Assembly (NCBI GenBank): GCA_024137785.1
Contig: JAHRHZ010000021.1
Span: 42,520,305 to 42,583,244 of the forward strand
From: Ginglymostoma cirratum
Taxonomy: Eukaryota
Reading direction: 5' to 3'
Length of the DNA: 62,940 nucleotides
The position numbers and the translations under genes were made by a program. Below the pieces are notes generated by a model. That model made no database searches, was not told the DNA's origin, and saw only the letters and a list, made by a program, of their open reading frames with translations. This document shows, piece by piece, positions 6,173-62,100 of the stretch (its first letter is position 1; each line of letters opens with the position of its first letter).

Positions 6173-6587
6173 ATAAACCATCTTTGATATATTTTAGGCT
6201 GATCTTGAGCCCCATGGCCTAAGTGATGGAAACTGTATGCCAATCCACTTTGTTTTGTCTTTTTGAAGTGCCAGAATTTGAAAAGCAGGAAAGCTAATCT
6301 TGGGTCACATAATCAAGACGCTGAAAGATAGTTATTTACAGTGTGCATTCCTTGTGCCTGAACTAATAACAACTCACATATAAACAAGTACCCAACCATG
6401 GGACACAGTTTTGTATTTCATATAACTGCAAATCTATCCACAACACCATTAGCCCTGCAATTTAGAAAGAAAGAGCAGACTATTTCAGAGATCATAGGTA
6501 CTGCAGATGCTGGAGAATCCGAGATAACAAGGCGTAGAGCTGGATGAACACAGCAGGCCAAGCAGCATCATAGGAGCAGGAAAGCTT

Positions 6588-6615
6588 GACGTTTCGGACC
6601 TAGACCCTTCATCAG
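6588..6615 (-). ncRNA. Minimal type I hammerhead ribozyme motif (PLE-borne)
   Basis: Minus strand reads CTGATGA-agggtctaggtcc-GAAAC-GTC: hammerhead core, short stem II, palindromic ACGT stem III, GUC cleavage triplet. Confidence 0.7.
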
Positions 6616-7105
6616 AAATGGGGGAGGGGAAGAGGGTTCTGAAATAAATGGGGAGGGGGGGGGAGGTGGATAGAAGATGGATAGAGGAGAGGATAGGTGG
6701 AGAGGAGGCAGACAAGTCAAAGAGGCGTGGATGGAGCCAGTAAAGGTGAGTGTAGGTGGGGAGGAGATAGGTCAGTCCAGGGAGGACTGTATCCACATCC
6801 CAAAACCAGCCCAGCTCATCCCCACCTCCCTAACCTATTCTTCCTCTCACCTATCCCCTTCTCCCACCTCAAGCCGCACCCCCATTTCCTCCCTACTAAC
6901 CTCATCCCGTCCCCTTGACCTGTCCGTCCTCGCTGGACTGACCTATCTCCTCCCTACCTCCCCACCTACACTCACCTTTACTGGCTCCATCCCCGCCTCT
7001 TTGACCTGTCTATCTCCTCTCCACCTATCCTCTCCTCTATCCATCTTCTATCCACCTCCCCCTCTCTCCCTGTTTATTTCAGAACCCTCTTCCCCTCCCC
7101 CATTT

Positions 7106-7133
7106 CTGATGAAGGGTCTAGGCCTGAAACGTC
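7106..7133 (+). ncRNA. Minimal type I hammerhead ribozyme motif (PLE-borne), sense to the PTPRZ1 pre-mRNA
   Basis: CTGATGA-agggtctaggcct-GAAAC-GTC. Stem I is weak (ttt/aag). Confidence 0.7.
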
Positions 7134-7682
7134 AAGCTTTCCTGCTCCTATGATGCTGCTTGGCCTGCTTGTGTTCATCCAGCTCTACACCTTGTCATAG
7201 CAGACTATTTCAGTTGTGTCATGGGCACTCCAGTGTAGTTAACCAACTATTTATTTTCCCTAGAATGATATAAAAATTTATTGTGACAATACTAGCTTTG
7301 TATTCTCCATCTGAACATCATTCCATTGAACACCTGATAGTAATCTCACTCAGTTGTGTAGGGGGCTATTACAATTGTTCTTTCCAACATTCATTGCCAA
7401 GGGTTGTTGTGCGTCTTTGTGCCACCTCCAACCAAGCCCAGAGTGCTGATGTAGCCACGTGTTTCATATATACCCCCAGGTAAACAACAAGAAAATCCAA
7501 CCTTGTAACTAGCCTTAAGTTGTGACTGATATATTGTTTCTATTTCATTATAGATTCTAGCATATCTCTATCTGTCTGCCTTTCAAGCTGTAGCAGAGTT
7601 TGACCCTATAAGCATAATCATACCAATTAGCAATGGTAGACTGAACCCAGATTTGCCAGGTTTGATGCATGTAAAACTCGGA

Positions 7683-9225: not shown

Positions 9226-9360
9226 AAATAAAACAAAGAACTGTGGATGCTGAGGATCTGAAGCAAAAACAGAAATTGTTGGAGAAACGCAGCAGGTCTG
9301 GCAGTATCAGTGGAGGGAAAGCAGAGTTGACATTTCAGGTCCAGTGACCCTTCTTCAGAA
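9226..9360 (-). mobile_element. Short PLE-type element, family 2, with degenerate hammerhead motif at its 5' end
   Basis: Homologous to 10012-10174 and 38954-39198. Minus strand begins ttCTGAAGAagggtcactggacctGAAAtgtcaactc. Confidence 0.7.
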
Positions 9361-10011: not shown

Positions 10012-10174
10012 TAAAAACCAAAAGAACTGCGGATGCTGTAAATCAGGAACAAAAACAAAGTTGCTGGAAAAGCTCAGCAGGTCTGGCAGCATCTGTGGAG
10101 GAGAAAACAGAGTTAATGTTTCGGGTCCAGTGACCCTTCCTCAGAACTCGATTCATCCTCCACAGATGCTGCCG
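10012..10174 (-). mobile_element. Short PLE-type element, family 2, with a small inverted segment and 13-bp TSD
   Basis: TSD gtgcagagtgcat at 9999-10011 and 10175-10187. The terminal cctccacagatgctgcc is an inverted copy of internal ggcagcatctgtggagg. Confidence 0.8.
10110..10149 (-). ncRNA. Minimal hammerhead ribozyme motif, family 2
   Basis: Minus strand gagtt-CTGAGGA-a-gggtc-actg-gaccc-GAAAC-att-aactc: 5-bp stem I and 5-bp stem II. Stem III is altered by apparent CpG decay (cg>ca). Confidence 0.75.
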
Positions 10175-14280: not shown

Positions 14281-15016
14281 CTCCATAAATGACACCTAGT
14301 CCAAAAAAATGGAAAAATTCAGACCTACATTTTACAGTTTTTGTGCTCACTTCAGTTCAGCAACATAGATTTGTTCAGTTTATTAATTGTGGTAGCCTTC
14401 CTATTTCTGTATTCCAGTCTTGTATCTACATTTCTTATGATTCACATAGGCTGCCTCTGGTGTATTTAAAAGCCCTTCGTCCTGATCAATCTTTTTCTGA
14501 TGGGAAAATTGATTTCAATGGACAACAGATAGTTCTGGTCTCGATCTAAAACGTAAAGTCTGCAGAAAGTTCATTCCTTTTTTATCTGCAAAACTAAATA
14601 CAATCCTCATCGCCAGTGTGTGAGAAAGACATTTTGCTGATTCAACAAAAATGGAATACAGTTTCATTGGGCTCAATTTATTAGCAATAGGGAACATTCA
14701 GAAGGCAATGAATTGAATGTCTTTTTTTTTATTGAACACATGCAAATTTGTTCTGATTTCGGACAAAATTAATTTTTCTAAACTCCATTTTGATAATCTC
14801 AATTCCAAAAGAGATTTGAGACTCAATCTTTCTTTATATATGAGCTGGAATGATTCTCCTGATTTCTCAAAGCCAAATGTTGAAACAAATTTTATGATGT
14901 TATTTAATTAGCATTTTTAGGGAATATCTTCACAACACCATCATTTAGATTTCAGGCTTTCATTATTGTGTTATATAGCCAATTTGGTGGCACAAATAGA
15001 GCTATTTATCTACTGT

Positions 15017-15137
15017 TGAAGGGTAATACCTGAAACGTTAACTGCTCCTTTCCTCCAGATGCTGCCTGGCCTGCTGTGTTCTTCCAGCCTCCTGTTTGCC
15101 TACCTTGGATTCTAGCATCTGCAATTTTTTTTGTTTC
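15017..15137 (+). mobile_element. Short PLE-type element truncated inside the hammerhead core, 10-bp TSD
   Basis: Begins tgaagggtaatacctGAAACGTTaactg, continues gatgctgcctggcctgctgtgttc..ggattctagcatctgca. TSD tatctactgt at 15007-15016 and 15138-15147. Confidence 0.75.
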
Positions 15138-36140: not shown

Positions 36141-36310
36141 TCTTCTCCTTTATCCATCTTCTATCCGTCTCCCCCCTCTCTCCCTATTTATTTCAGAACC
36201 CCCCTCCCCTCCCCTATTTCTGATAAAGGTCTAGGCCCGAAATGTCAGCTTTCCTGCTCCTCTGATGCTGCTTGGCCTGCTGTGTTCATCTAGCTCTACA
36301 CCTTCTTATC
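36141..36310 (+). mobile_element. PLE 3'-end fragment with decayed hammerhead
   Basis: tttatttcagaacc..ttCTGATAaaggtctaggcccGAAAtgtcagctttcctgctcc..ctacaccttcttatc. Confidence 0.82.
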
Positions 36311-39198: not shown

Positions 39199-40043
39199 TC
39201 AGTATTGTTGTAAATTGGAACTATTATATTAACTAATTTATATAGTTAGGAGTGACCAACATTTTCTCCTTGCTCTAAATCTGACGAATATTATTTGCAG
39301 AATTTGGAAAAGAATTATCTTTTAATGCTTCCCAAATGTATTATGAGTGAAAATGTGCAGTTAGCTCATCCACACCCATCAGAATAGTGCTAAATTAATT
39401 ATGGACCAGTATTGTTCAAGAACCTCTCACCACTGTACCTTAATATTTATCCAAGTGCTGGAAATAATTTAGAGAAAACCAGCTGCTTCAAGTTCCAGTG
39501 TGAATCTATTTCAGCCAGAATACTTAAATTTGATAGGTAGGATTGCAAATGAAATGTTTCAATCCCAAATAACACTGCAACATGGAATATTGCAAAAATC
39601 TGGAGCAGGAAATGTTTGACACTATTTTAAGTAACTAAAAACCTAACTTGATTGATTATTTCTCTGAAACATTATTAATTAAGTGGGAAGTCTAATTATG
39701 GCTGAAATAATAAATGATATGCACTCATCAAAATCAAATTCTTTAAGTGAAATCAAAATACTGCAGATTCTGGAAAACTGAAATAAAGAAAACAAAATCT
39801 CATACTGAGACTAAGAGTTAATGCTTATGACTCTATTATCATAATTCCTTTGCATTACGAAGAAGAATTATAGTGGACTTGAAGCGTTAACTCTGTTTCT
39901 CTGTCAATGGGTGCCGCCAGACCTACAGAGTTTCTCAGGTATAAGAGATAAAAGGTACTGCAGATGCTGGAGAATCCGAGATAACAAGCATGGGGCTGGA
40001 TGAACACAGCAGGTCAAGCAGCATCATAGGAGCAGGAAAACTT

Positions 40044-40071
40044 GACGTTTCGGGCCTAAACCCTTCATCAG
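40044..40071 (-). ncRNA. Minimal hammerhead ribozyme motif
   Basis: Minus strand CTGATGA-agggtttaggccc-GAAAC-GTC-aagt. Confidence 0.72.
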
Positions 40072-40698
40072 AAATGGGGGAGGGGAAGAGGGTTCTGAAA
40101 TAAATAGGGAGAGGGGGGAGGAGGATAGAGGATGGATAGAGGAGAGGATAGGTGGAGAGGAGGCAGACAAGTCGAAGAGGCGGGGATGGAGCCAGTAAAG
40201 GTGAGTGTAGGTAGCGGGGTAGGGAGGAGATAGGTCAGTCCAGGGAGGATGGACAGGTCAAGGGGGTGGGATGATGTTAGTAGATAGGAGATGGGGGTGG
40301 GGCTTGAGGTGGGAGGAGGGGATAGGTAGGAAGAAGGACAGGCTAGGGAGGCAGAGATGAGCTGGGCTGGTTTTGGGATGCGGTTGGGGGAGGGGAGATT
40401 TTGAAGCTTGCAAAACCAGCCCAGCTCATCTCCACCTCCCTAACCTGTTTTTCCTCTCACCCCAAGCCACACCCCCATCTCCTATCTACTAACATCATCC
40501 CGCCCCCTTGACCTGTCCGTCCTCCCTGGACTGACCTATCTCCTCCCTACCCCCCTACCTACACTCACCTTTACTGGCTCCATCCCCGCCTCTTCGACTT
40601 GTCTGCCTCCTCTCCACCTATCCTCTCCTCTATCCATCCTCTATCCGCCTCCCCCTCTCTCCCTATTTATTTCAGAACCCTCTTCCCCTCTCCCATTT

Positions 40699-40726
40699 CT
40701 GATGAAGGGTTAAGGCCCGAAACGTC
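40699..40726 (+). ncRNA. Minimal hammerhead ribozyme motif, sense to the pre-mRNA
   Basis: attt-CTGATGA-agggttaaggccc-GAAAC-GTC-aagt: intact core, 4-bp stem I with one G-U pair. Confidence 0.72.
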
Positions 40727-43700
40727 AAGTTTTCCTGCTCCTATGATGCTGCTTGACCTGTTGAGTTTCTCAGGTGCCTTCTGCTCTCATTTCAATTTCT
40801 GTATGCTTTGCCCCTTCCTCCTATCCATCACTTGAGCCCAGAGGAATGAGCCTATATATATATGACAAACAATTAACAAAGTTTTTAATTCTATTCTTGC
40901 AATATTGATTTTGTTTGGTTCACTTTATGTAATTAATTATCATAGCAATCAATAATGCATAGGAAATATAATTTACAGTTCAATTGCTTGTTATATTTTA
41001 GTTCTTTGCCCTTTCTTCTGATCAACTAGGTAATAAACCTGCAAATATACAGCTGAGGGTTTGTGACTTGTGCATTGAATGATATGCTTCATTTCATTTA
41101 TTGATTCTCACTCAGCCTTAGGATTTTCCCTTCTCTACTTCATTTGGCATCAGTTTATTTTGGAAGATTGACAATCAGATATGCTACTTGCCTTTGCATT
41201 GATTCTCGTTCAGTAATGATGCATTTTTCAGCTTCACCAGTTAACCTCATTGCATTTGGAAACTTACAAGTCATGTTATAGAGAAAATATTTTAAAATTA
41301 ACACAAATCCCCATTCTAAATCAAATCAGTTGTAAATATTTGCTTTTATAACCTAATGTAACAGATACCTTATATGTACATGAGAACCATTTGTTAAATG
41401 CCTGAATGATTCCTTTTAAAGTAACCTCTTGAAAGAAGGAGGAAAATACAAATTGAGCTGGATATTTGACCCAAATAGTGCAAAATAGCTCAGCATAAAG
41501 GACCAGAATCCATGTCAGGAATGTTACTGCAGAAAGATCCTGCGATCGACTCCTTGATTGATTTTTCACACTCTTTCTGTGGAAATAGGCAGATTACTAG
41601 CCATAAGGGCTATCATTCATTTGGAACCAAACCCACGAATGATATTTTTCTTTTTACTCACATCCAATTTTTTCTAATGAAACTTACAGAAATTCTCTAA
41701 GATTGATTTTGGCTGCATCATTTCATCTTTTGTTTAAATTTCAGCATATGCTGGATCTTTGATTCTACTACTCTTTTACTCTATGCATTTAACATTATCC
41801 ACATTTTCACTCCTTGAATGTGTGCTTATCCAAAAATATAGGCAGATTTGTGTTTTAATTTGAATGTCAGAAATCAGCTTTATATATTTAATGAAATACA
41901 GAATAACAAATGAGCACACAACTTCTGATAGAATTAATAAGTTCTACCAAATTCTTTAAGTAGGTGACTGAATGACTCAAAGTTGTTCATTCCAGATGCA
42001 CACAAGCTTCTGTTACAGCCTCTCAGCTCTCCTTTAGTTTTGAGTTTTCTGTTATTTAGGGCTATCCTTCTTTATTAAAAAGAAATTATGCCGAATATTC
42101 TCTATATTGTCTGTGTTTTGGTAATGCAGTGTTTACTTGTACATTCAATTCAAACTTATGACAGGATGTAGTCAAGATTGGCTGTCCAGCAGTAGTGAAA
42201 AACATACTTAGTTTGATCAGTGATTATCTTCCTTAAAATGTTTGTTCCATTTTGCATAATAATTGTGAAGCAAAATTTGCATTTTTCAATAATTGGTTGT
42301 ATGTTTGCTTCTAATATATTTTATACTTTTATTCATCAACTTGGCTTAGAGCTCCCAAACTTGGAAGCAGATTTGAGGGTTGGTCTAGGTTATACTTAGA
42401 CTTGATGTATGTGACAATTTGGTAGATCCATGACAGCTTTGTTTCATCGATAACATTTAAGCAGTTCCTGATGAGTGTGTCAGATAGAAGGCACAGGGCT
42501 TACATGCCTAGAACTTAAAACAAACTTGTACTTTGTGTGCTGAATCATATATAAAGGTCTGCCTCTCATTGCTGAAAGCAGAAATTCATCAGATCTCTGG
42601 TGTATAAACACTTAAGCTTCTTATGACTACTCTTGGTGACATAAGTTCTGGAATCAGACTTCTAGTTGGATTTCTATATCCAAGGTTCAATTTCCATGTT
42701 GCAGAAGGACAAAGACCTTATGTTGATCACTCTGCCTCCAATTGATGGAACATTATTTGAATGAGTCAACATGTGTATCTGTGCTCTAATCTGGAAAACC
42801 TTGCAATGATCTCACGTACTTCAGTGAGTGGTACAGCTCACCACCCATTCAGGAGATCTGTTTGATCCTGCAATAATCCTGAAAAGATCAAATGTAAAAG
42901 TGTCAGTTCTCTGATTGACTAGTGATGATCATCCTTGGGAGAAGGAATTTCTTTGGTATTGAGTTGGTTTCAAGATGATATGAGTTGGCATTGGGAAGGG
43001 TGGAATCCAGTTCGTCCCCTTTGTAGACTCTACTGATGCAATATCTGAGCCAGGACAGTGTGCTCTAATCCTGGGCTAATTATTGACTGCCCAACTTGGC
43101 TCAGAGATAGGAGCCAAGAAAGCCATAGGATGCAGTATGGTTCATCAGTCCCTGGAGGTTAAGTTCTTCATACTCAATTGTTAAAAAAAAGTGCCAGGGA
43201 TCTACAGTGAAATAGCCAATTTTTTTTTACATTCTTTGGGCCTACAGGTCAAATTTCATTTGTACCTCAGTCTAACTTTGAGAGGTTGGGTATATTGAGT
43301 ATGTCTCTACAAGAAGAACCCAGGCTTTTTTTTTTAATATGCCAGTTGAGATGCTACTTATGTAGATGTAGTTTGTATTGAGAACTCGAACTCCAAAGCA
43401 TGGTGGTGGGCTAGTGTTCAATTGTTCTGTGTTTGATTATGAGAGTTCGTTCACAATGGAAGTTCACTGTGCTTGACTTGTTAAGCCTTGGTGTGAACTC
43501 AGAGAAAGATAATCAAAGCCAGAAGTTAGTTACTAGATGAATGCCAGTGCATATTTTTTTAGAAAAGTAAATTATCCTCTTGCTACAGACAACCTAGTGC
43601 ATTATGCCTGCATAGCTCCATAATGTGAAACGTACAACAAATGACCTGTATGTTCCAGGAAGGAAAATGGTTAATAGAATCAATGCAATAGAATTGGAGT

Positions 43701-48494: not shown

Positions 48495-49385
48495 GGCACA
48501 ACAATGCCTCCATTTCATCAGGAGGCTAAGGAAATTTGGCATGTCCATAAAGGCACTCACCAAATTTTATAGATGCACCATTAAAAGCATTCTATCCGAA
48601 TTCATCACAGCTAGGTACGGCAACTGCTTTGCCAAGGACCGTTAAAAAAGAACTAGAAAGTTGTGAACACAACCCAGTCCATCACACAAGCCAACCTACC
48701 ATCCGTTACATTTCTTGCTGCCTCAGGAAGGCATTCAGCATAATCAAAGACCCCTCCCACCCTGCTTATAATCTCTTCCATTGGGCAGAAGGTGCAAAAG
48801 GTGAAAAAGACGTACCAGCAGATTCAAGAGATAATAGGAACTGCAGATGCTGGAGAATCCGAGATAACAAGGTGTGGAGCTGGATGAACACACCAGGCCA
48901 AGCAGCACCATNNNNNNNNNNNNNNNNNNNNNNNNNNNNNNNNNNNNNNNNNNNNNNNNNNNNNNNNNNNNNNNNNNNNNNNNNNNNNNNNNNNNNNNNN
49001 NNNNNNNNNNNAGGAGCAGGAAAGCTTGACGTTTCGGGGCCTAGACCCTTCATCTACGCCTGAAACGTCAAGCTTTCCTGCTCCTATGGTGCTGCTTGGC
49101 CTGGTGTGTTCATCCAGCTCCACACCTTGTTATCCCAGCAGATTCAAGTCCAGCTTCCTCCCCGCAGTTATTAGATTTCTGAATGAACCTCTCAAGTTTT
49201 AAACTTAATGTTGATCTTGCACTTTGTGCACCTTCTCTGCAGCTGCAACATTGTACTTTTGCTCTTTTCTATTACCTTAGTGGATTTGTACGGTATGATC
49301 TGCCTGTACTGTACTCAAAACAAAACTTTTCATTATACATAGGTACATGTGACACCTCAATAATAAATCAAATCAAAATCAAAAC
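48495..49385 (+). mobile_element. Rex1/Babar-type LINE 3' end, split by a PLE palindrome
   Basis: AQQCLHFIRRLRKFGMSIKALTKFYRCTIKSILSEFITARYGNC; ends aataaatcaaatcaaaatc. Confidence 0.75.
48829..49134. mobile_element. PLE 3'-end palindrome with 14-bp TSD; contains the 100-N gap at 48912-49011
   Basis: TSD ccagcagattcaag at 48815-48828 and 49135-49148. The arms share private variants. Confidence 0.85.
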
Positions 49386-49457: not shown

Positions 49458-50270
49458 GTACAGTTTGTGACCCTGACACCTCCAAAGCCTACTTTGACCA
49501 AGCTTTTTGTGATCTATTCTACTGTCTCCTTTTGTGAAATTCTCACATTTTGCTTTGTATTGCTTCCTGAAGTGATTAGTGACTTCTCAGCTTTTTCTTT
49601 CACCGATAACAAACTGATTGTTGACATGCAAATGTTTATAGAAAGAAAACTGAAATGGCTAGAATATGCAAATTAAGGTTGATGCAAATTTGTTTGAAGT
49701 GTTTTAATCGTAAGATTCTCTGAGCTGATAAATGCGGAAAAAAACGAGGTATTTGTTGCTTGGCAACAGATGTGAGAAAAACAAGAACATTTTGTATTTA
49801 TGTAACACCTTTAACATACTAGAATTTCCAAGGTGCTTCACAGGAAGCAATCTGACTAAAGCTTATTAGCTCTGTTTCTTTTGTATGATAATTTTATTGG
49901 AGGTATTAAAATGAGCTACTAAAGGCTGCTTTTTGTAATGCTTGCAAAAAATTATGTCCTTTTCTGCACATACCAATGCTTGATTTTTCTCAAATAAAAT
50001 TCGAGGAAAATCAATAAACCATCATCTGCTAATACGGTCAACAGTGATTTCTAGAGTTACAGTGAGGATTCTTATAAACTGAAATCAGAATTCTTCCTCG
50101 GTCTAATTGCCATTTCAAGAGAACATGTCCATTCAGTTCCTTTACATTGTTGGGGTTAGTAAGCATTCCACATTTAACCATGCTTCAGCCAGAGCAGCAA
50201 ATATTTCTGATCAATTTAATTTCTCCAGCCCTGAAGTTGTGGCTTCAAGCAGACTCCTGGTGTCAATGAT

Positions 50271-50457
50271 AAAATGTACTGCAGACGCTGGAGAATCCGA
50301 GACAACAAGCATGGGGCTGGATGAACACAGCAGGTCAAGCAGCATCATAGGAGCAGGAAAACTTACGTCATCCAGCCCCATGCTTGTTGTCTCGGAAGTT
50401 TTCCTGCTCCTATGATGCTGCTTGACCTGCTGTGTTCATCCAGCCCCATGCTTGTTG
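50271..50457. mobile_element. Three-piece PLE 3'-end palindrome with 12-16 bp TSD
   Basis: Minus arm to 50364, short plus piece 50368-50395, plus arm from 50396. Direct repeat tcctggtgtcaatgat at 50255-50270 and 50458-50473. Confidence 0.85.
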
Positions 50458-50659
50458 TCCTGGTGTCAATGATCTTTTTGATTTCATTGAACGACCATAC
50501 TTAAAGCATTCATGTTCTCTACCTGATATTATATACAGCGTTTCCAGTAGATAGCAGCCAAAAGCAGAATAACTGGCTGATTTCTTCATTTCTTCCATTC
50601 ACCTAAGGATGTGGTCCTTCCACTCATGCACTGATTAAAGTAACTTACCTTGGTACATA

Positions 50660-51490
50660 TCATTTCGCATACAATACTCCAGGTGTGGTCTTACCAAGAC
50701 CCTGCGTAACTACAATAAGCCACCCAACTTCTGAATGTAAATCCTTTTGCATTGAAGCCAAACATATCATTTTTCCTTCCGAATCACTTGCTGCACCTGC
50801 CTTTTTCCTTCCATAGACTAGTGTAGAAGAATACCCAGATCACTTTGTGCATCCAAATTTCCCAAACTTTTCCATTTAAATGATACTCTGTCTTTCTTTT
50901 TCTCACCCCAAAGTGTATAGTTTCACATTTATCCATATTACACTGCATGTGCCATGTGTTTTCTCATACTTACAACTTGTCCTGAAGCTTCCTTGCATCC
51001 TGTTCACAACTCTCAATCCCATCTAGTTTTGTGTCATTAGCAAAGTTCGAAATGTTGCATTTGATTATCTCATCCAGGTCATCTGTCATGAATAGCTGGG
51101 GCCTCGCCACAGAAAAATACCCATTTATTCTCACTGTCAATCAAATCTCGACCCATGTCTGAAATTAACCCCAGTCTTGCGTGCTTTACTTTTACCCACT
51201 GGCCTCTTAAGTGAGACCTTATCAAAACCATCCTGAAATCAAAATGTGCAAGATTGCCCTTTTCTATATCCTCAGTTACATCCTCAAAAACAGTCCAGTA
51301 GATTATCTAATCATGATTCCCCTTTCATAAACCTATGCTGACTTTGTCTAATCCCATTAGTGCTTTCCAAATGTTCTGTTATCACCTCTTTTATAATAAA
51401 CTTCAGCATTTTCCCCATGACTGATGTTAGGTTCATTAATATGTAATTCTGTTTTTCTTCGCCTCCCACCTCTTTTTTTTAAATGTGGGG
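50660..51490 (-). mobile_element. Old CR1 ORF2 fragment
   Basis: acaatactccaggtgtggtcttaccaa is the reverse of LVRPHLEYC; tttgtgtcattagcaaa is the reverse of FANDTK; cctttcataaacctatgctgact is the reverse of an SQH.F.KG-like motif. Confidence 0.75.
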
Positions 51491-51592
51491 TGATATGGTG
51501 CCTTACAAGGAATTGCATTTATTCTGGTCAAAATTACAAATATGGAAATGATTTTTTTTCTAGTCTAACTTATTTTTTGTTATATATTGCAG

Positions 51593-51639
51593 ATTTTGGT
51601 GCCTTTTTCAATTTTAATGACACATTTGATGATGCAGAG
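51593..51639 (+). CDS. PTPRZ1: PTPRZ1 exon 11 equivalent (47-nt linker exon)
   Basis: Branch point ctaac at 51565, tatattgcag| ... gag|gtaatg; 47 nt, phase 1/0, which bridges exon 10 (phase 1) and exon 12 (phase 0); (D)FGAFFNFNDTFDDAE. The length equals the mammalian exon as I recall it, but protein similarity is low. Confidence 0.78.
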
Positions 51640-53386
51640 GTAATGCAAATATATATTATCCTTTGGCTGTCTGTTGTTGACTTTAAAGAGTTATTTTATG
51701 TATGAATTCATCTGCAAATAGGAGTGCATTTTCATTTAGTACCTCGTTTAAAAGCTTCAATACATGTCTTTAACTACAAGAACAAATAATTTAAGAATAA
51801 ACAAGAGTTCCAATAAATATTGTTATTATTTTTAACTCTCCCTCTTATCTGCATTACAATACGCAATGTGCATTTTTTTTTGTCAATCTTCTCAACAGTC
51901 GAATGTTTCTCTCCAGATTAAATACCGAGCTTTGACAGATTTTAATCTGGTGGCAAAATAAATAAAACTGTAAGTGAAGGTGAAAACGCAACGTCAATGA
52001 ATGTGACATTAAAAGTGACATGACCAGTTTAAGTTGTTCAAGGTTTCCTTTACTTTCCATGTTATTTAATATGCAATGTTATCAATTATTTGTACATTAT
52101 CCAAACAAGAATAATTAAACCTCCTGAGATTTTAAGCATTTGGAGCAGTACAGTCCAAAAAAAAATGCTCACTTGCATCGCTAGTAGAGAAACTCAGTTG
52201 GTCTGGAAATATCTGTGGAGAGAGAAACAGAGTTAACATTTTAAATCCAACATGACTGTTCTTCAGTACCAACTCTTGCCCCCTATATTGGAGTGGGAGG
52301 CCTTCTGGCTTCTGGAGTGAGTCAGAGTTCAACAAATTACCAGAACCGGGAAATGGAGCAGGATAGATTTAAACCAGCTCAAGCATGTTCTGAGTACATT
52401 GCAGATGACTTATAAGCAAACTGTTGTGGGTAACAGGTGGGGTTGGGAGTTCGAAAATCAGTCCCACTGTCAATTTGGCAACTATTAAACCAATACACTT
52501 TGGAGAAAATAGGAAGCTCATCCCTGATGATTTGAATTAGTGGGTGGAATTTATTGCCATTTGACCATGACACATTTGCTGGACAGATAGGCATTGAATC
52601 AGAAATGAGGGTGGTTTGGGTCTTGGTTAGGGTGGATGGAGATGACATTGTTTTCCCATGTCCAACTTGGTTAAGTCCATGGTGGGGAAGCTTGTAGATG
52701 GCCTTCCTGTCCTGTCAACAATTGAGGCCCTCAAATGGTCAATTGATAATGTGCCTCATCCCAAATACTCATGGCTGGTGGTGGCCTTGTCCTGAAAGGA
52801 GCACAACAAGCAAAACCATGCAGGCTAGCTTGTGGGCTCATTTGAGAGGGGAAAGGAGGGGATAGTCCTGCTGAGTGCAGCGCCTGTACTCTTGTTCACC
52901 TCCAAACCCTCCCCCTTACACGCTGCGACCTCCACTCCTGCCATCAATCAATGTAATCCAGTGATGGCCAAATGTGGGTGTGATACTGGCAGCAACCTTC
53001 CCTGGTGGTACTTCTGTTCAAAAGATGACTTTTGTCATCCCAAAGAAGACCTACCACTGTCACCCATCTGAGTGATGGTGGGCCTCTCGCCTGGATGACA
53101 GCCTTCAGCTAAGACACCCATCACCTCCACTAAATCCAGCACAATATTCTAAGCGCACAGATAAAGGGTATGATTCTTATTTGGTTCTTTCAATGTAACT
53201 TCAGCAGAAACCTTGGAGAAATAGTGTAAGTTGCCATTTTTAGTCACTAAGGCTGTTTCCCAACAGTTCTGCTCGTTTTAAGCTGGCAAAACCCTTGCAG
53301 AAGTTCTATGTCAAGTTTGGTCAATAGAATACATAAAATGAAACATGTTTGCATGTATTTTTTTTAAATCTTACTTTCTCCTTCAG

Positions 53387-55982
53387 CCAACAGAAAGTAA
53401 TCCAGAGCAATCAGGACCAATTTTACTTGAAACTCACACAATGTCAATATTTAATCACAAATGGAATGAGAAGAGTGTGGAAGCTGAAAATGAGAAGTCC
53501 ATATATATCAAAGACAAAGAACAGAGTGCAAATGCTGTTCCTAATGAAAAGTATTTTGTCAAGGGAAATGAGGAAATAACCACAAAGGTTGCCATCCCTG
53601 ATGTTCTTTATACCCCTTCCTTCTCTGCGGTTGAAACAATATCGAAGGAGATACGTACTGCACTGCCCCACGAAACCATGATCCCTTCCATAGCTGAGGA
53701 CTCGGATGATTCTTCAGCGGTGGGACCCCTGGAATTGAATGAAATTTTCACCATCACCCACCAAGCAAGAATTCCAGTCACATCCAAAGAAACCCCACAC
53801 TTCAGTACTGCGACGGAATCTGACAATATATTGAGTGTACCCACCATTGGCACCAGAAATATTCCTCGGGCTGTAACGCCTGAAGATGGCCTCACAAGTA
53901 ATTCAACTCCCAATGTATTGCCTGAAACAATGATTGTCATACCTCGGATGGATTCTAGTAAAGAACAAATGATTTCAACCAGTGAAAGAATTAGTTCCCA
54001 AGAGCTCAACACGGTTCCTGATTCTGTCACTTCTGCAGCAACAGTCCAGCCAGATATGGTAACCTCTTCCACCAGCAATGTACTTGCGTCTCGTGAGATG
54101 TTTTCTGAAACTCTTCTTCCTCCTGACCAAGAGATATACCTCCGTAGTACTCCAGATTCCATTGACAAATTAAATACCTTGCGTAAAGAGAAGGAAATCC
54201 AAGCTACCTCTCCTTACTCTACTGGTGAGATGGTGTTTCAAACTACCACTGTGCCCTCAAACAGCGAAGTGTCCTTTCATGCTACCTCTGCTTATACCCA
54301 TGAGGAAGTACTGCTGCAGCCTACTCCCTCCTTATTCAGTGCATCTTTTTATCAATCTTCTGCTTCTGCTGATAGTGAAGTGTTTTTTCAAATGACAAGT
54401 CCTTTATCGACTGACTCAATGTCTCTGTATGTGACCTTTGATTCCCCTGCTAGTGAGACATTTCCTCCTTCTGCCCATACTTTTTGTAGTAGTCAAATGT
54501 TGCTTCAAGCTACTTCTGTTGCTGCTTATGATGAAGTGGGACCGTCTGGTTCATCTCTACCAGCCAATATTGATGCTCAAGCTACCCTTCCTTTAGCTAG
54601 CAATGTGGTGTCTCTTCATACTACCCCTGCTTCCTCCTCTACTGAGAAACTCCCTTATGACCTTCAGAGCTCCTCTGAAATTCCAGCATTACTCAATGTG
54701 ACTTCTGCTGCATCTAGCAGCGAGCTGGTGCTGCATACCACTGCTGCAACCTCTGTTGGCGACCTGTTGTTTGAATCTGCCCTTCCTTTACCCAGTGGTG
54801 TGATGTCTCTTCAAACTTACCCTAGTTCTAAAAAGAATGAGATATTTCTTCATGTTACTCCTGCTCTTTCCGACAGTCTGATGTTGCCTTTGACTCCACC
54901 TGTTGTTCCCAGTGATGAGACTTTGAATGTTACTTCTGCACCCGTTGTTACAGACACATTGATTCAAGTGATCCCTACTTCCTATGAAAGCAAAATGTCT
55001 TCGTATGCTTCTCCTGTTTTTCCCAACAGTCAAATATCAACTGCAGCTGCTCCTGCTTTATCCACTAATGAATTATCCCTGCAAGCTACTGTTAGTGTCT
55101 TTGATAGTACAAGATCATTGAGTGATACCGAAACTTTGAGGAAGAATGAGACAATGCTTTATGTTTCCCTCATGCCTTCCAGTGATAATGCACTCTCTTA
55201 TGTTTCCTCTACTGTTTCCAATAACCAGTTTTCTGTTCCTACTAGCCTGCCTTTATTGTTTGATGATGCAATGCACATTTCTGTTCCAGCGACAACTCCC
55301 AGCAGTGAGCTAACCATGCAAGGTTCTGCTGCTCCCTTGCCATCTCCTTCAGTGCCTTCTTCTGTCACATTGCTGAGTGAAAGTCAGGATGGTGAACTGT
55401 GGTCTTCTGGTTCAGAAATTGATTTGTCAGAGGCAGATGGTAGTGTTCCAACAACATTTTACCCCAGATCTGAGGAAGAAAGTCACTTAAATGGGCAGAT
55501 ATTCAGCACTACAAAGGAGCAGAATAGTCAGTATCCCCAAATCCTATCAGGATCACCTGCGTCTTCTGAAGAAAACTCATTCATCACTACTTTTAACTTC
55601 AATTTAACAGATTCATATGTGGACAGAAATCATTACATGGCAACAATACTGACACCAAAAGCATCCACTGGAAATCACAAAAGACCAACAATAATAGGAA
55701 GACATAATTGGACCACAACAGTAACTACGAAACCATCCCCATCATACTCTAGGACTAGTACCTTCCTGACTACTGAAGAGGAGAGTGGTTCTGGCCAGAG
55801 TGCATCTGATAGTCTAACTGTTAATGAAACTTCAGTGGTGCTAAGTTCCCTCGAGTATAATTATAGAGCATTAGACAGTACACCAGGCACAGGTAAAGCA
55901 GCAGAACCAAGGACGTCACTGCCTTCAGCTCCATCTGTAACTAGTGGGCTTGAAACAACTTTATTCAACATTTATGAGGCAG
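53387..55982 (+). CDS. PTPRZ1: PTPRZ1 exon 12 equivalent: large Ser/Thr/Pro-rich chondroitin-sulfate attachment region
   Basis: ctttctccttcag| ... gaggcag|gttagt; 2596 nt open, phase 0/1. Motifs DGELWSSG, LTTEEESGSGQSASDSLTVNETS and the C-terminal SVTS..F...EA match mammalian PTPRZ1. Confidence 0.95.
54188..55345 (+). repeat. Degenerate coding tandem repeat, about 30 units of 13 aa (39 nt)
   Basis: Manual parse, e.g. EMVFQTTTVPSNS / EVSFHATSAYTHE / EVLLQPTPSLFSA / QMLLQATSVAAYD / ELVLHTTAATSVG / EIFLHVTPALSDS / ELSLQATVSVFDS. Confidence 0.78.
54222..54230 (+). promoter_or_regulatory. Internal alternative 5' splice site in exon 12 (short receptor isoform)
   Basis: CTG|GTGAGA after 54224, phase 1 like the distal donor. 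Protein context QATSPYSTG|E parallels mammalian QTTQPVYNG|E. Confidence 0.75.
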
Positions 55983-55987
55983 GTTAG
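55983..55987 (+). other. In-frame stop within the exon 12 donor (secreted phosphacan-type C-terminus ..EAG*)
   Basis: GAG GCA G|GT TAG: failure to splice adds Gly and then stops before the transmembrane exon. Confidence 0.75.
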
Positions 55988-58956
55988 TTATGATTGAAAA
56001 CCATTTGCAAAACCAAAGTTGAAATCAATGCAGCTCTGGAGGGGATGGTCAGTGACCTTGGTAGTGGGATTCTTGTTGATGCCAGAAAAGGCTCTGTACT
56101 AAGATGACCTGCTCATTTCTCTACGTGACTGTAATCATGGTTGATGGGGTCTATAGTAGCTGACCTACATCTGTAAAATTCAGTAGAATTTTAGGTTAAC
56201 ATAAAACAAACTTTGAATTTATATTTTTAATCATTCTGATTTGGTAATGATCCAAATTAAGTCAGAATTGCCATCAGAATTGTGTGCTATACTTTACATA
56301 ACTGCATTGTTCTCAATTTATTCAGAAATTGAGCTATCGTGAGACTGTTTGCTGAGTAGCACAAAATGATCTCCTACAGTGTAAACTAATGCTAACTGTG
56401 AATAATTTATATTACAATATCAAGATTCAGAAAGTGTTCGAGCTTTATTATAAATGAGCACTGTGTTAGCATCTTTGGTAATCTGAGAAATGTGCAACAT
56501 TGCAATTGACTAATATAGTGAATCTTGTACAATGAGTACAAATATATTTATACCCTTCTAGGAAATTAACAAAAAGAAAAACTTGATTCATATGGAAGAC
56601 AGTAGGGGCGTATATCAATGCATAGACAAATGATGGTGCCTAAACCACAAGTATTCCCTTATCAATTTTTTTCTTTACATTGTGACAGTAACAAACACAG
56701 AGCACAGGTTTTTCAGATATGTTGTGTCATTTACTTCCCTGACTCATGTAGTTAAAAACATTATGGAAGTCAGTGCTTTTGGGCTAGGGCCGATGTTCGG
56801 TTTACACACAGTAGCATTTAATTTGAAATAAAAAGCCATTACTCCCTTGCAAAATAGCATAGATCAAAAAATGAGTAATATTGCTACAAACTCAGTGTGC
56901 ACAATAATATTTGGTCAAATGAGCGCAATAGTGTTTGAGTTTAAAGAAGGTCTGGTATTTTAATCGAAATAATTTAACTTGGTTCAGTTTGTTGTCATGG
57001 GTGCCTTTCTTAATGTACGGCGTTGTATGAAAATTTACAGAATTTGATTTTAAAAGCACATATATCAACTGGCAGTATCAAACAACTGTTTTATAATTTA
57101 TTTAAAAGTCAATGTGTTTTGGGGAAATAATACTGCTGAGAGTTCCAGCAGTGCTAATATGTTATCGTTAACAATCCTGATATGTCTTTATTGTCAACTG
57201 GATCCTTAGAAGTACAAGACAGTGATACCTGTGTTGTTGTATATTTCTCGCTGAGCTGTCTGGTGTCATTTTCAATTTTGTAGTGGGACTCGGTATAACC
57301 ATTACAACAGTAGATTAGCAATTAATCTTTCTTACAGTCAATGTGTTGATTAATATACCTTCTGTCCCTATTCATATATAATATAAAATTTCCTTTTCCT
57401 ACAAGGGGCATTGCAGTAATATAGTTGATGATTGATGCAAGATTTTGAAGTAAATTCTGAAACAATTAATATGTGCCAAACAAAAATGAGCCAAGTGAAG
57501 CTGCAACCAGACAATACACTGGCTCCATTTTAAACTGACCGTTGGAGGTTTCCAAACATATCTACCACTATTAGGTTTGTGTTGTGTTCTCCAACCCACA
57601 AATGGCAAGTTAACATGTAATTTCATAGCTGGCAAATTTACAATGCGAGTGATTGGACCAAACTCTTTACATAAATGGATGAATTTAGTGTGCACTGTTA
57701 TTATGTTCTTGCAGCAATTCTAAATAAGTGGTAAAAGAAAAGTTAAGCTTTTTTTACGTGACTGAATATTGTATGAAACATAAAGATATTTTGTGTGATA
57801 CCAGGATCCTGTTACTCACCGCAGAAAGTCCATGGTGTATAATAGTTTAGTGAGACCAGGCTCCTCTCCCAGAAGCTCTCAATAAGTCCGAGATTAGGGG
57901 CAGAGTCGTGCATTTGTTCCACAGCACCCTGTGATTTTAGTCAATTATTTACTTGATGCAATAAGCTTAAAGCATTCCCATCTGTATCTCATTCTCTGAT
58001 CTGTGATCCTGGCATGCCAGACTTTAGGACAGGAGATTTGTCAAGCAGACCTACAGCCCTAATGGTAATTCTAACCAATTGGTCAAAAATGACATCAGAT
58101 TTGTGTTCAGCTGTAAAATAGCATGCAGTAGGAAAATGATATTAGGGGACAAACGTGGTCATGTGGCTTCGCAGGAAATACTCAACTATCCAAAGAAAGC
58201 AACTGTCTAGTAATCAAATTTTCTCAGACAAAAGACAGTCTCATCTCATACTGGTAGGTGTACTGGTCAGAATTTTGTTTTAAAGAAAAACATATTGACA
58301 AAACTGAGCATGATCTTATATTAGACCAAATTTTAAAAAAATCAGTAACATTTTGGAAATCGAATGTATTGTAACCCTTGCCCGTGCTTATTCACCTTAC
58401 TTGATGTAGAAACATTGTTAATTCATTGTCATGTGGAGCAACGTTTATGCTCAGCCATTCCTGTAATTGGATGGTTCAAATCAATTGAAAATATTTTCAT
58501 ATCTCCACAGATTTCTTCTACATGAGGTCCATCCAAAAGTCATCAGCTTCTGAAAGTAAAGGAACAAATATTTTTTAAAACAACCACGTAATGTCTATTA
58601 GGGAATGCCCACAATCCTCAAAAACATAGGCTCTGGTCCAGACTTTACTCAGTAATATCTGGTGACTGGGCCTACCATAATCCGCCAAAAATGTATAACA
58701 TTTGATAGGTGTTTGGAATTTTGGTATTCCCACTACAACACGGTGAAGGTAATTTGTCTGCTTCAGAATGTCCACGACCCTGTCATGCCTGGCACAGCAA
58801 TGATACATTACATATAATTTGGTTAAACTTCATTGGTGGGCAAGTGTTCACTTGTTCCGCCCAGTGGTGAAAGCTTAACAGCCAGCCTCCAGCCTCCAGC
58901 CTGGGGTGTTCCTATTCACAGCTCCCGTAAGCACTTTCAGGATCATCCATGTATTT

Positions 58957-59141
58957 GAGATAAAAGGTACTGCAGATGCTGGAGAATCCGAGATAACAAG
59001 CATGGGGCTGGATGAACACAGCAGGTCAAGCAGCATCACAGGAGCAGGAAAACTTGACGTTTCGGGCCTAAACCCTTCAAGTTTTCCTGCTCCTGTGATG
59101 CTGCTTGACCTGCTGTGTTCATCCAGCCCCATGCTTGTTAT
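58957..59141. mobile_element. PLE 3'-end palindrome with imperfect 15-bp TSD
   Basis: Minus arm to about 59079, plus arm from 59079. Flanks atcatccatgtattt (58942-58956) and atcatctatgcatct (59140-59154). Confidence 0.85.
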
Positions 59142-62100
59142 CATCTATGCATCTATTGGGATTAGGTTGTCTAATTGATGTGCCAATGTTCCAAATGGAT
59201 CAGTCTGCAGAGAATCTTTTGTGTGATGGATTCATCCAGAGCTCAACTGATACCTTTTCATGATGAATCTCTGAAAGGAACAAATACGCTTTGCAGTACA
59301 ACACAAGCAATGTTAGAGTTTATTATATTCAATAAGTCTTATGAACCCTTCTCCAAATTTTCACATTTTAAAAAATGTTTCTTGTAATTACCTCGAATTT
59401 TCAACAACATAAATCTAATACATTCTCTGCTTCTAATATTTGATGCTGATTTTTTTTTTTGTTGGTCAGATTGTGCAGTTCAAGGTTAACCTCATTCATG
59501 AAGACATCATTTTTGAAATACATAAGCTCTTACCTGTGATAATTTGCTCTGTATCTTTGACAACATCTACAGTGATCATATTTTTTGTACTTTGCCTTCT
59601 ATATTTTCTACTATAGTCACTTCAAAATGCACTGAAAACATTAAAAGAAATAGATAAGATTGTGTTGATTTATTCCTTCAAAAGAAACTTAGCTGGCTGG
59701 AGATTAGATTGAGAATTATAGAAATAAGTGTGGAGATGTATAACGAAGAGCTTCATGGTGCATGCTCTGCCGTCAGTCAGAGCAGGTCACTCATACAAAT
59801 GAAGTAGATCATATTCAGTGAAGTTGAATAGTAGATATTCAGAAGTGATTGCTGATTTTACTTAAAGCCTTCGATCATTAGGGAAAAATGTTCTTCAGGA
59901 AATTAATTAAATGTAGTGAAACCATGATGTTCGCTATCTGAGTAGGACTGGGTGTGATGGGGCAAAAAAACTGACCCAGTGCCAAAAAACAAAAAAAAAA
60001 ACTTTACATATGTGTTCACCTTTTTGTCAAGTTCTTTAATAAATATTTTATCTATTTAAGATTCTGCCACTGACCTACTCTTGTACTGCCTTTTATCCTG
60101 GCTCAGTATTCTTACCTTGGCTCAGGATCGGGGATTGAATTAAGTGGGAACCCAATAACCCTCCCATCTGTGGTACTTCCTTCAAGCCCTCAAACCTGCT
60201 CTGTCAAAGTGACCTCCTTCACTACCCACAATCCTCCTGATCTCCACACCCTCCTGCTCCAAGTTTAATGAATACATTGAAGTTTCCAGTTGGAGAGAAT
60301 TTTCCATTAGAAAATTCAATTTCATCGAAAAATTCCCACAGAGTCAGCTGTATCATGGCTTCCACAAGGTCTAAACTTGCAACTCCAATGTACCCTGCAC
60401 CAACAGCTCTACATCCATCAGAATATCAGGGCCATTCTTTGTGAACAGTGGTTGCCATTATTATGCACATTGTCCGTGAACTAGTAGTAAGGGAGAGATA
60501 AATTGTAAATCACCGCAAGTGGCTGAATGATTTGTGATGCTGCATCATCAGCATCGCAAAACAGATTCTTGCTCTCAAAACCCTGTGAGTTTCATGGAGT
60601 CTCTGCAATTGCACATGAATTCTCCATTAAACTTAAACTCTCCATAATTAGTCCAGTTGTTGTTTGAATAAGTGACCTTTCATGAGCATGTTAATTGCTG
60701 GCAGTTTCCAATTGGCTTTTGTTCCTTTGGAAATAAATTATAAATATGGACTGTTTTGAATTATTTCAGTCATTTTAAAGATGTAATTTTCTTCTGTACC
60801 ATTTTTCCCTCCCTCAAGTCAATTTTCTTTTCCCTCCCTTTATTTGTCACTCTGCTCCTGACTGGTTAAGGAAGCGCACATTATGCTGCATGTACTGTTT
60901 CAAAATCATGTCACACACCCAGCAACTTAGCTTTTCTTAAAATGAAAACCTTAATGTGTAGTTATACGTATTACCGCTCTAACAGAAATCTGATCCATTT
61001 TTAAGCTGGTATTTGCAAAAGCAAGCTTACACGTTTTACCATGTGACATATTCTTAGTTTCACTGTCATACAACAGGATCATTAAAATCCACATATCTTT
61101 CAGCAGTTATCAAATTTGTTGTCTGAACTAAATTGCAATTGAAGACAGACATCAGTCGGTTTTCCAACATCCCACAATGTCTGTTTGGGGTTATACAGAG
61201 TGGAGATTTCATAGTTAAGTTACATCATCACACTAAGTTACAAAGCAAATTATTTTTCTTTGTTTTGACTATGTATTCATATCTGTAGTTACAGGGATGA
61301 ATGTCGTACCATTTCAGATGTAATTTTCAAAAGTATATGGGTTTTTATATGTTGCTCTTTTGATTTACTGGCTCCAATTTTTTAATGTAACGGAGGTCTG
61401 GGTATTAGCTATTGAGAGGAGGAGAAAGAATAACTAAAGTTCACAAGTTGGATGATTCTCAATATGCATTTCTGTTAAACTGGTCCCACCAGTAACGTTG
61501 TCATTTTGAATTAGATTAGAAGTGATTCATACAAAAACCTTTAGCAAACAACATTATCAATCATTTTTATTTCTTCAACTTTATGATCATTTAGAGGGTT
61601 AGCTAGTTTTGATTGTATTGTTTGATGCTTTTCAGATCTTTATATTGCTGTGTTACAGATTTTGAATACTTTGGTATTTTGTGGCAATATACTGTTACCT
61701 AAGTGCCTCTATGTGAACTGTGCAACCTCCTAGAATCTTTAGTGTCTGCATACTTTGTCTCATTAGTACCACAGTCAAGGGCTAGAGTGGGCAGGGCAGC
61801 TACACATGGCCAGTTTTATTTCAGAATTCACTAGCTAACATTTGGTTCCAGGCTAAATTCAATTGAACTGCTTGGGAAGCTACAGTCTGCACCTCCCAAC
61901 AGGACTGGAAGGGATAAAATAATTGCATCAAGAGGTAACTACTGCAACAAATTGAGCACCATCCCAAATATATACTGAACAGTTCTTTCATTTCACTCTC
62001 AAAGACAGAGGCTCGGTAATTCCTTTAATCTCCTAGACCTTTGCCTCATTCCAGTATCACCTCTTGCACAATTAGAGTCCAATTACATGTGGATAAATCA

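Follow-up and report, generated by a model that had tools for sequence, protein, structure and literature searches.

The window analysed here, a stretch of 62,940 nucleotides of the Ginglymostoma cirratum genome, contains two repeat insertions in which an arm begins at the predicted cleavage site of a minimal hammerhead ribozyme. The first-pass annotation read these arms as possible fossils of reverse transcription that had run off an RNA 5' end made by self-cleavage, which raises the question of whether genomic copies record the cutting of such ribozymes in living cells. Throughout, element +1 denotes the first A after GTC, that is, after the predicted cut site.

Structure of the two insertions

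At each locus, the hammerhead-bearing end of a Penelope-like retrotransposon has been inserted head to head (Table 1). The plus arm of locus 1 (50255-50473) reads AAGTTTTCC from 50396, and the A at this position is common to the end of the filler and to the arm, so that the arm starts at +1 or +2, in agreement with the annotated start at the cleavage site with a one-nucleotide ambiguity. The minus arm ending at 50364 had been described as stopping at or within about 5 nt of the same site, and this also held, the next four bases being element -2 to -5 with C(-1) missing. No complete ribozyme is present within locus 1. The plus arm of locus 2 (58957-59142) reads AAGTTTTCC from 59079; as annotated, it begins at the site with the TCA microhomology spanning the junction, which leaves its start ambiguous between -2 and +2. 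The target duplication of locus 2 is imperfect, and a private G(+17) is common to its two arms.

Table 1. Positions in the window of the features of both loci and of the copies used for comparison
Feature	Position	Strand	Remarks
Comparison head-to-head pair	39945..40770	.	13-bp duplication; both arms >300 bases past cut site
CCATTTC in intact copy	40693..40699	+	A at 40695 is element -32, main genome-wide 5' stop
Intact minimal type I hammerhead motif (predicted)	40695..40730	+	4-bp stem I, CUGAUGA, stem II, GAAAC-GUC; predicted cut before 40727
Left target-site duplication, locus 1	50255..50270	+	16 bp; final 3 bases common to end of minus arm
Minus arm, locus 1	50268..50364	-	element +1..+97, long 3' end class; from BLAST against locus 2 arm
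Four element bases, locus 1	50365..50368	-	element -5..-2 (ACGT), C(-1) absent; from alignment
Sense filler, locus 1	50368..50396	+	element +41..+69, 29 nt; same private variant as both arms
Plus arm, locus 1	50396..50459	+	element +1(+2)..+64, short 3' end class
Right target-site duplication, locus 1	50458..50473	+	
Minus arm, locus 2	58957..59079	-	element -24..+99; continues through predicted cut site
Microhomology TCA, locus 2	59077..59079	.	3 bases; fits both arms; spans element -2..+1 of plus arm
Plus arm, locus 2	59079..59142	+	element (-2 to +2)..+64

The two insertions were confirmed to be independent, as had been proposed, since their flanks, junctions and private variants all differ; derivation of both from one palindromic master was ruled out by the differing junctions and variants. 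It is very improbable that the two junctions, or the scarred copies described below, are assembly artefacts at hairpins. In favour of artefacts, 23 of the 166 arms sampled genome-wide abut N gaps, and the inner junctions of locus 1 were bridged by none of the public contigs listed. However, both loci are gap-free, and the exact duplication of locus 1 agrees with an empty site, in which 50254 is joined to 50458, in contigs of related organism B (one from each of two runs); the left junction is also crossed by about 26 letters in a contig of organism A. In addition, the cut-site inserts are not alike among the scarred copies, and N is absent from 8 of the first 12 listed loci with such inserts.

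Three more head-to-head pairs, at 6488-7200, 48828-49134 and the comparison pair of Table 1, have both arms extending past the site. At 48912-49011 and at many other loci, assembly gaps lie within head-to-head insertions and sometimes duplicate an arm, and hairpin insertions are likely to be miscounted through such gaps. More diverged relatives of the hammerhead-bearing repeat, in which the sequence after the cut differs, occur at 15016-15123, 10020-10125 and 9280-9339. An 881-codon open frame (53342-55984, plus strand) between the two loci resembles a large host-gene exon, and Pfam and atlas searches with it gave no usable match.

Identity of the element and of its predicted ribozyme

The 32-base core of the repeat has 51,040 exact matches in the 4.36-Gb genome. 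An open reading frame with reverse transcriptase (RT) and C-terminal GIY-YIG domains, as in EN+ Penelope-like elements, was linked to the repeat across related loci: GIY-YIG was detected in L106 (E=3.6e-5, above the cut-off) and RVT_1 in L189 and L083 (E about 1e-6, just under the cut-off), and ORF pieces were found upstream of the motif in L017, L005 and L087, with no single intact ORF recovered from these loci. An NCBIfam search gave zero matches. Tandem units (pseudo-LTRs) are present in L096, L098, L171 and L194, the gap-free set contains 74 head-to-head pairs with inverted 5'-truncated copies, and the 3' ends fall into two classes, clustering at +60..+71 and +97..+99, as expected of an optional 30-40 bp tail. 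Penelope-like anatomy is described as including inverted and truncated copies together with tails and minimal hammerheads (PMC8557442; PMC4209133, as far as the accessible text goes). The linker in L106 is CX4CxxC, and a CX2-5CxxC linker between RT and EN defines Neptune/Nematis in the available part of PMC8557442; by this motif, the element would probably be placed in the Neptune/Nematis type.

Paired arms share 20 variants over the 74 gap-free pairs (103 are unshared), compared with a mean of 6.5 and a maximum of 17 in 1,000 shuffles, which is consistent with a common template or with later conversion. Two tandem loci have noteworthy starts. In L096:1503-1920, a copy that has a target duplication, the sequence begins at +1 and spans a unit with an internal shortening; a second ribozyme, uncut, follows, and the copy terminates in the tail beyond it. 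The start of L098 is likewise at +1, and this copy continues into the element body.

The intact motif in the window has the sequence features of a minimal type I hammerhead (CUGANGA, stem II, GAAA(C)-(G)UH and a short stem I). A scan of the window with Rfam at the gathering score gave 0 matches, and minimum-energy folding did not single out the hammerhead (z about 0), although stem II does form; the constrained hammerhead fold has an energy of -4.0 kcal/mol. Two subfamilies, represented in the window at 36247 and 7134, differ by one A at the cut, GTC^AGC versus GTC^AAGC (97 of 100 among the matches listed), a difference that may have begun as a scar and become fixed in a source lineage.

Distribution of 5' breakpoints

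Arms were sampled in the window and at loci around the core matches listed first (166 arms, from which the 23 abutting N gaps were dropped). In the 98 young arms, the break lay beyond -44 in 35, at -34..-30 in 33, at -23..-19 in 15 and at -2..+2 in 4, and two of these four are the arms flagged in the window. The cluster at -23..-19, in which microhomology to the partner arm is often seen, could be a second start site.

Breaks were also counted genome-wide with exact anchors of 30-32 bases preceded by three mismatches. The counts were 4,179 at -31, 130 at -7, 44 at -2, 87 at -1, 328 at +1, 252 at +2, 100 at +3, 125 at +5, 260 at +8, 121 at +13 and 274 at +17, which corresponds per anchor to 14.8% at -31 (denominator 28,161) versus 0.64% at +1, where the denominator for anchors other than -31 was assumed to be close to 51,040. 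A single-nucleotide spike directly after GUC had been put forward as the test of cleavage, and for the most part it failed: the 328 breaks at +1 stand against 260 at +8, 274 at +17 and 4,179 at -31, and a single dominant spike at +1 was ruled out by these counts together with the classed junctions. For the classing, 12-70 loci per position were used, the first ones among the matches listed. Corrected for base composition, all junctions together gave 669 at +1, 758 at +8, 612 at +17 and 579 at +2.

When only arms joined to host DNA were considered, +1 was the highest of ten nearby positions, with a corrected count of 377 (interval 292-460) versus 47-253, the interval for +8 (153-371) overlapping that for +1. 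The host-joined share was 36/70 at +1 versus 72/233 elsewhere (p=0.003). In the older subfamily, for which A at -1 was excluded from the count to avoid a subfamily one base longer, there were 107 breaks at +1, 95 at +2 and 72 at -1 (denominator 21,982). By eye, leaving aside read-through and element-derived loci, 8/29, 3/20 and 1/17 of these, respectively, were host-joined, and hand estimates of about 105, 36 and 9, from very small samples, again placed +1 highest. The position +1 is thus a minor, context-confounded peak comprising about 1% of arms.

Among the breaks at +3, 12 of 100 among the matches listed read GTC|GTTTT, with both A's after the cut lost, and two of three that were inspected proved to be read-through copies. 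Loss of both A's after the cut was as frequent as loss of one A.

With regard to the two loci, roughly half of the +1 breaks exceed background, and the chances are therefore about equal that the plus arm of locus 1 may or may not be a run-off from a cut RNA end. Run-off followed by a jump fits this locus because the plus arm adjoins the filler, which likely arose through a template jump after the plus-arm cDNA had reached +1. At locus 2, joining by microhomology on an uncut template appears more likely than run-off from cut RNA, because the microhomology needs two bases 5' of the cut and the partner arm, which carries the same private variant, crosses the site. Approximately 3% of young arms break at -2..+2 after correction (the sum of the four corrected counts over 51,040). 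The presence at the site of two of the six young arms of the window would have a chance near 1% by a hand estimate, which many windows of a 4.36-Gb genome would meet. Taken alone, the two flagged arms are weak evidence for cleavage, because the microhomology of locus 2 reaches 5' of the cut and its partner arm crosses it.

The dominant 5' stop at -32/-31

The commonest 5' stop, found in about a third of the sampled arms, is located at -32/-31, and the A at -32 is the first base of ribozyme stem I. The CCATTTC sequence around it presumably fits an initiator consensus. In arms starting at -32 after two non-C bases, the base directly before -32 was G in 1,247 of 1,985 (63%, about 25% being expected); a hand count in the second subfamily gave G in 62 of 100 among the matches listed. 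Of 13 host-joined loci starting at -32, nine had the G and the other four had microhomology. In arms stopping at -31, most were preceded by extra T's, many as G-A-T, among the matches listed, which suggests stutter on UUU beside a capped end. An extra G marks reverse transcription of the cap in LINE-1 (PMC11702581, available text), and Drosophila Penelope is described as having an internal TATA-less promoter (PMC2377424, available text). From the base composition of these junctions, -32 is likely to be the capped start of the RNA. Splicing onto -32 was ruled out, the preceding bases being CC rather than AG and the upstream sequence being variable.

An alternative to a capped start, to which we attach little probability, is that reverse transcription stalls ahead of the C-rich tract, or that AT microhomology to targets or partner arms produces the stop. 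ATTT is the last AT-rich stretch before the run of C's, some of the G's derive from the partner arm (L313, L323), and arms of the -31 class with extra T's are more numerous than those of the -32 class. Against this alternative stand the excess of G and the single untemplated G that lies between the duplication and the element in L325 and, in L317 and L324, after partner arms that would continue otherwise. The templates stopping at the probable capped start held the whole ribozyme uncut, in line with findings in vitro for an anole element in the accessible part of PMC11167929.

Inserts at the predicted cut site

A search for gaps between GTC and AAG identified 25 copies with 2-10 extra bases, which were classed by hand as 18 untemplated T/A-rich inserts and seven tandem duplications. 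The 18 comprise seven of pure A, nine starting with T, one starting with C and one A-rich insert with G, and they represent approximately 16-17 events, because one insertion contributes both of its arms and another two copies are separated by 7.7 kb; against tens of thousands of copies in all, 18 is a small number. When the search was repeated at -4/-3 and +11/+12, control positions that lack the adjacent A run of the cut site, it yielded eight and three inserts, all tandem duplications and none untemplated. All but one of the scarred copies (17/18) reach past -35 and none begins at -34..-30, where about half of the arms getting there stop. In both L106 and L373, an A run links +1 to sequence lying farther upstream; L567 contains the same tail twice. 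At L562/L563 (G000:C24:28100487-28101469), both arms carry the same 8-base cut-site insert while their 3' parts belong to different subfamilies, either because two RNAs jumped to one tailed upstream product or through gene conversion.

The simplest reading of the inserts would be a cut at GUC followed by a jump of the run-off cDNA to the upstream product, and the 18 (T)nAn inserts are likely scars of occasional ribozyme cutting in living cells. It is thus likely, judging from these genomic junctions, that the ribozyme cuts long transcripts in vivo, at a low or hidden frequency. The rarity of the scarred copies, the stem I of just 4 bp, the lack of a hammerhead in the minimum-energy folds and the overlap of the +8 and +1 intervals weigh against this view. 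The proposal that arms are fossils of run-off from self-cleaved RNA could not be sustained on the two arms of the window, which are insufficient, and it gained support from the host-joined excess at +1 and from the 18 cut-site inserts versus none at the controls.

It is possible, if unlikely, that no cleavage occurs in vivo. In that case, reverse transcriptase would pause at the base of the folded ribozyme and stutter over the AA at +1/+2, after which it would either dissociate or continue along the same uncut RNA, giving rise to both the small +1 excess and the inserts. Position +1 lies directly against the structured core, junction rates differ 5-fold depending on the local sequence, similar T runs are found before the TTT at -31, and the seven pure-A inserts could be slippage on AA. 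Pausing accounts poorly, however, for the 10 of 18 inserts that start with T or C right after GTC with no template base lost. The longer AAA run at -7..-5 gave one 2-A expansion and no T-first insert in the 50 of 130 loci inspected, and the absence of scarred copies starting at -34..-30 would be left unexplained.

Alternatively, cleavage might be frequent and most read-through copies might hide it, the cut RNAs having been re-ligated into circles or joined by scarless jumps. This possibility, proposed in the available text of PMC4209133, seems improbable to us, even though RtcB circularises retrozyme RNAs (PMC7229834, available text), 35 of the 98 young arms read far past the site, and L096 spans its whole shortened unit from +1. 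Against it, a third of arms end 32 bases upstream, at the point marked by G, and such an end requires a linear RNA whose ribozyme is intact; in scarless copies, moreover, uncut and re-ligated templates are indistinguishable.

Proposed mechanism

We consider it fairly probable that these head-to-head insertions arose mostly from cDNAs copied from uncut RNA, with a minority copied from RNA cut at GUC. Both ends of a staggered DNA break would be extended by reverse transcription and the two cDNAs then joined. Transcription would begin at -32 and yield a capped RNA, on which reverse transcription would begin internally, near +99 or +65, and would often reach the cap and add an extra G. Long read-through RNAs, able to hold two ribozymes, would sometimes be cut at GUC. 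A cDNA running off the cut end (ending TT) could then join target DNA, which would produce the +1 excess, or it could jump to the upstream product at its tailed 3' end and leave GTC-(T)nAn-AAG. The extra letters may stem from U/A tailing of the RNA or from bases that the reverse transcriptase added, and either would require an end at that bond.

More tentatively, and with rather less confidence than an even chance would allow, the genome may record both ends of the RNA: the 5' end as a capped start at base 1 of stem I, and the 3' end as one made by the downstream hammerhead and bearing a U/A tail. The minimal hammerhead would then be a switch that is silent in the short capped RNA and cuts only in long two-ribozyme transcripts to make the 3' end of the mRNA, and the scars would be fossil proof, at single-bond resolution, of cutting by Penelope minimal hammerheads in vivo.

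Comparison with known systems

The element is of a known kind, and junctions mirroring a ribozyme cut are already known for R2 (PMC3774820, as far as its accessible text goes). It resembles the Penelope-like elements with minimal hammerheads (PMC4209133; PMC8557442) in its RT with C-terminal GIY-YIG, partial tandems, inverted 5'-truncated copies, optional 30-40 bp tail and minimal type I hammerhead in the pseudo-LTR; unlike the present analysis, the available parts of those papers contain no 5' breakpoint map, no cap G at the ribozyme edge and no cut-site inserts. The same parts report that in vivo evidence is absent for minimal hammerheads and that their role is unclear. A search of the literature on Penelope-like elements, which covered mostly the main text of freely accessible papers, found no description of cap G's or cut-site inserts.

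The available text on the anole Poseidon element PAc (PMC11167929) describes two internal RT start sites about 85-100 bases 3' of the cut, extension of both DNA strands and uncut RNA as the main template, as proposed here. Cleavage of PAc was dispensable in vitro, and none of the RNA reads had an end at the site. The present element differs from PAc in its CX4CxxC linker and in its long ORF, the start of which seems to lie 3' of the tail.

For the HDV-like ribozyme of R2, genomic 5' junctions likewise mirror the site of self-cleavage, and untemplated additions as well as template jumps occur; there the cut sets the 5' end of full-length copies, whereas here it accounts for about 1% of arms (PMC3774820). 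Full-length and 5'-inverted LINE-1 insertions share the cap-derived G, duplications of 12-18 bp, second priming from the other DNA end and joining by microhomology, but the inverted parts of LINE-1 barely overlap, whereas both arms copy the same stretch here (PMC11702581, available text). Non-LTR retrozymes have type I hammerheads related to those of pseudo-LTRs and dimer-dependent in vertebrates (PMC7229834; bioRxiv 10.64898/2026.07.22.740005, available text); they form tandem arrays of full-hammerhead units, unlike the two loci of the window, which are inverted pairs.

Implications

The accessible text of PMC4209133, PMC8557442 and PMC11167929 describes it as an open question whether Penelope-like minimal hammerheads cut in cells. 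Untemplated cut-site inserts and 5' cap G's can be counted, with no need for RNA data, wherever a genome is rich in such elements, and -32 and +1 are exact positions to be targeted by RACE. The role suggested for the ribozyme is in forming the 3' ends of RNAs, rather than the 5' ends of new copies.
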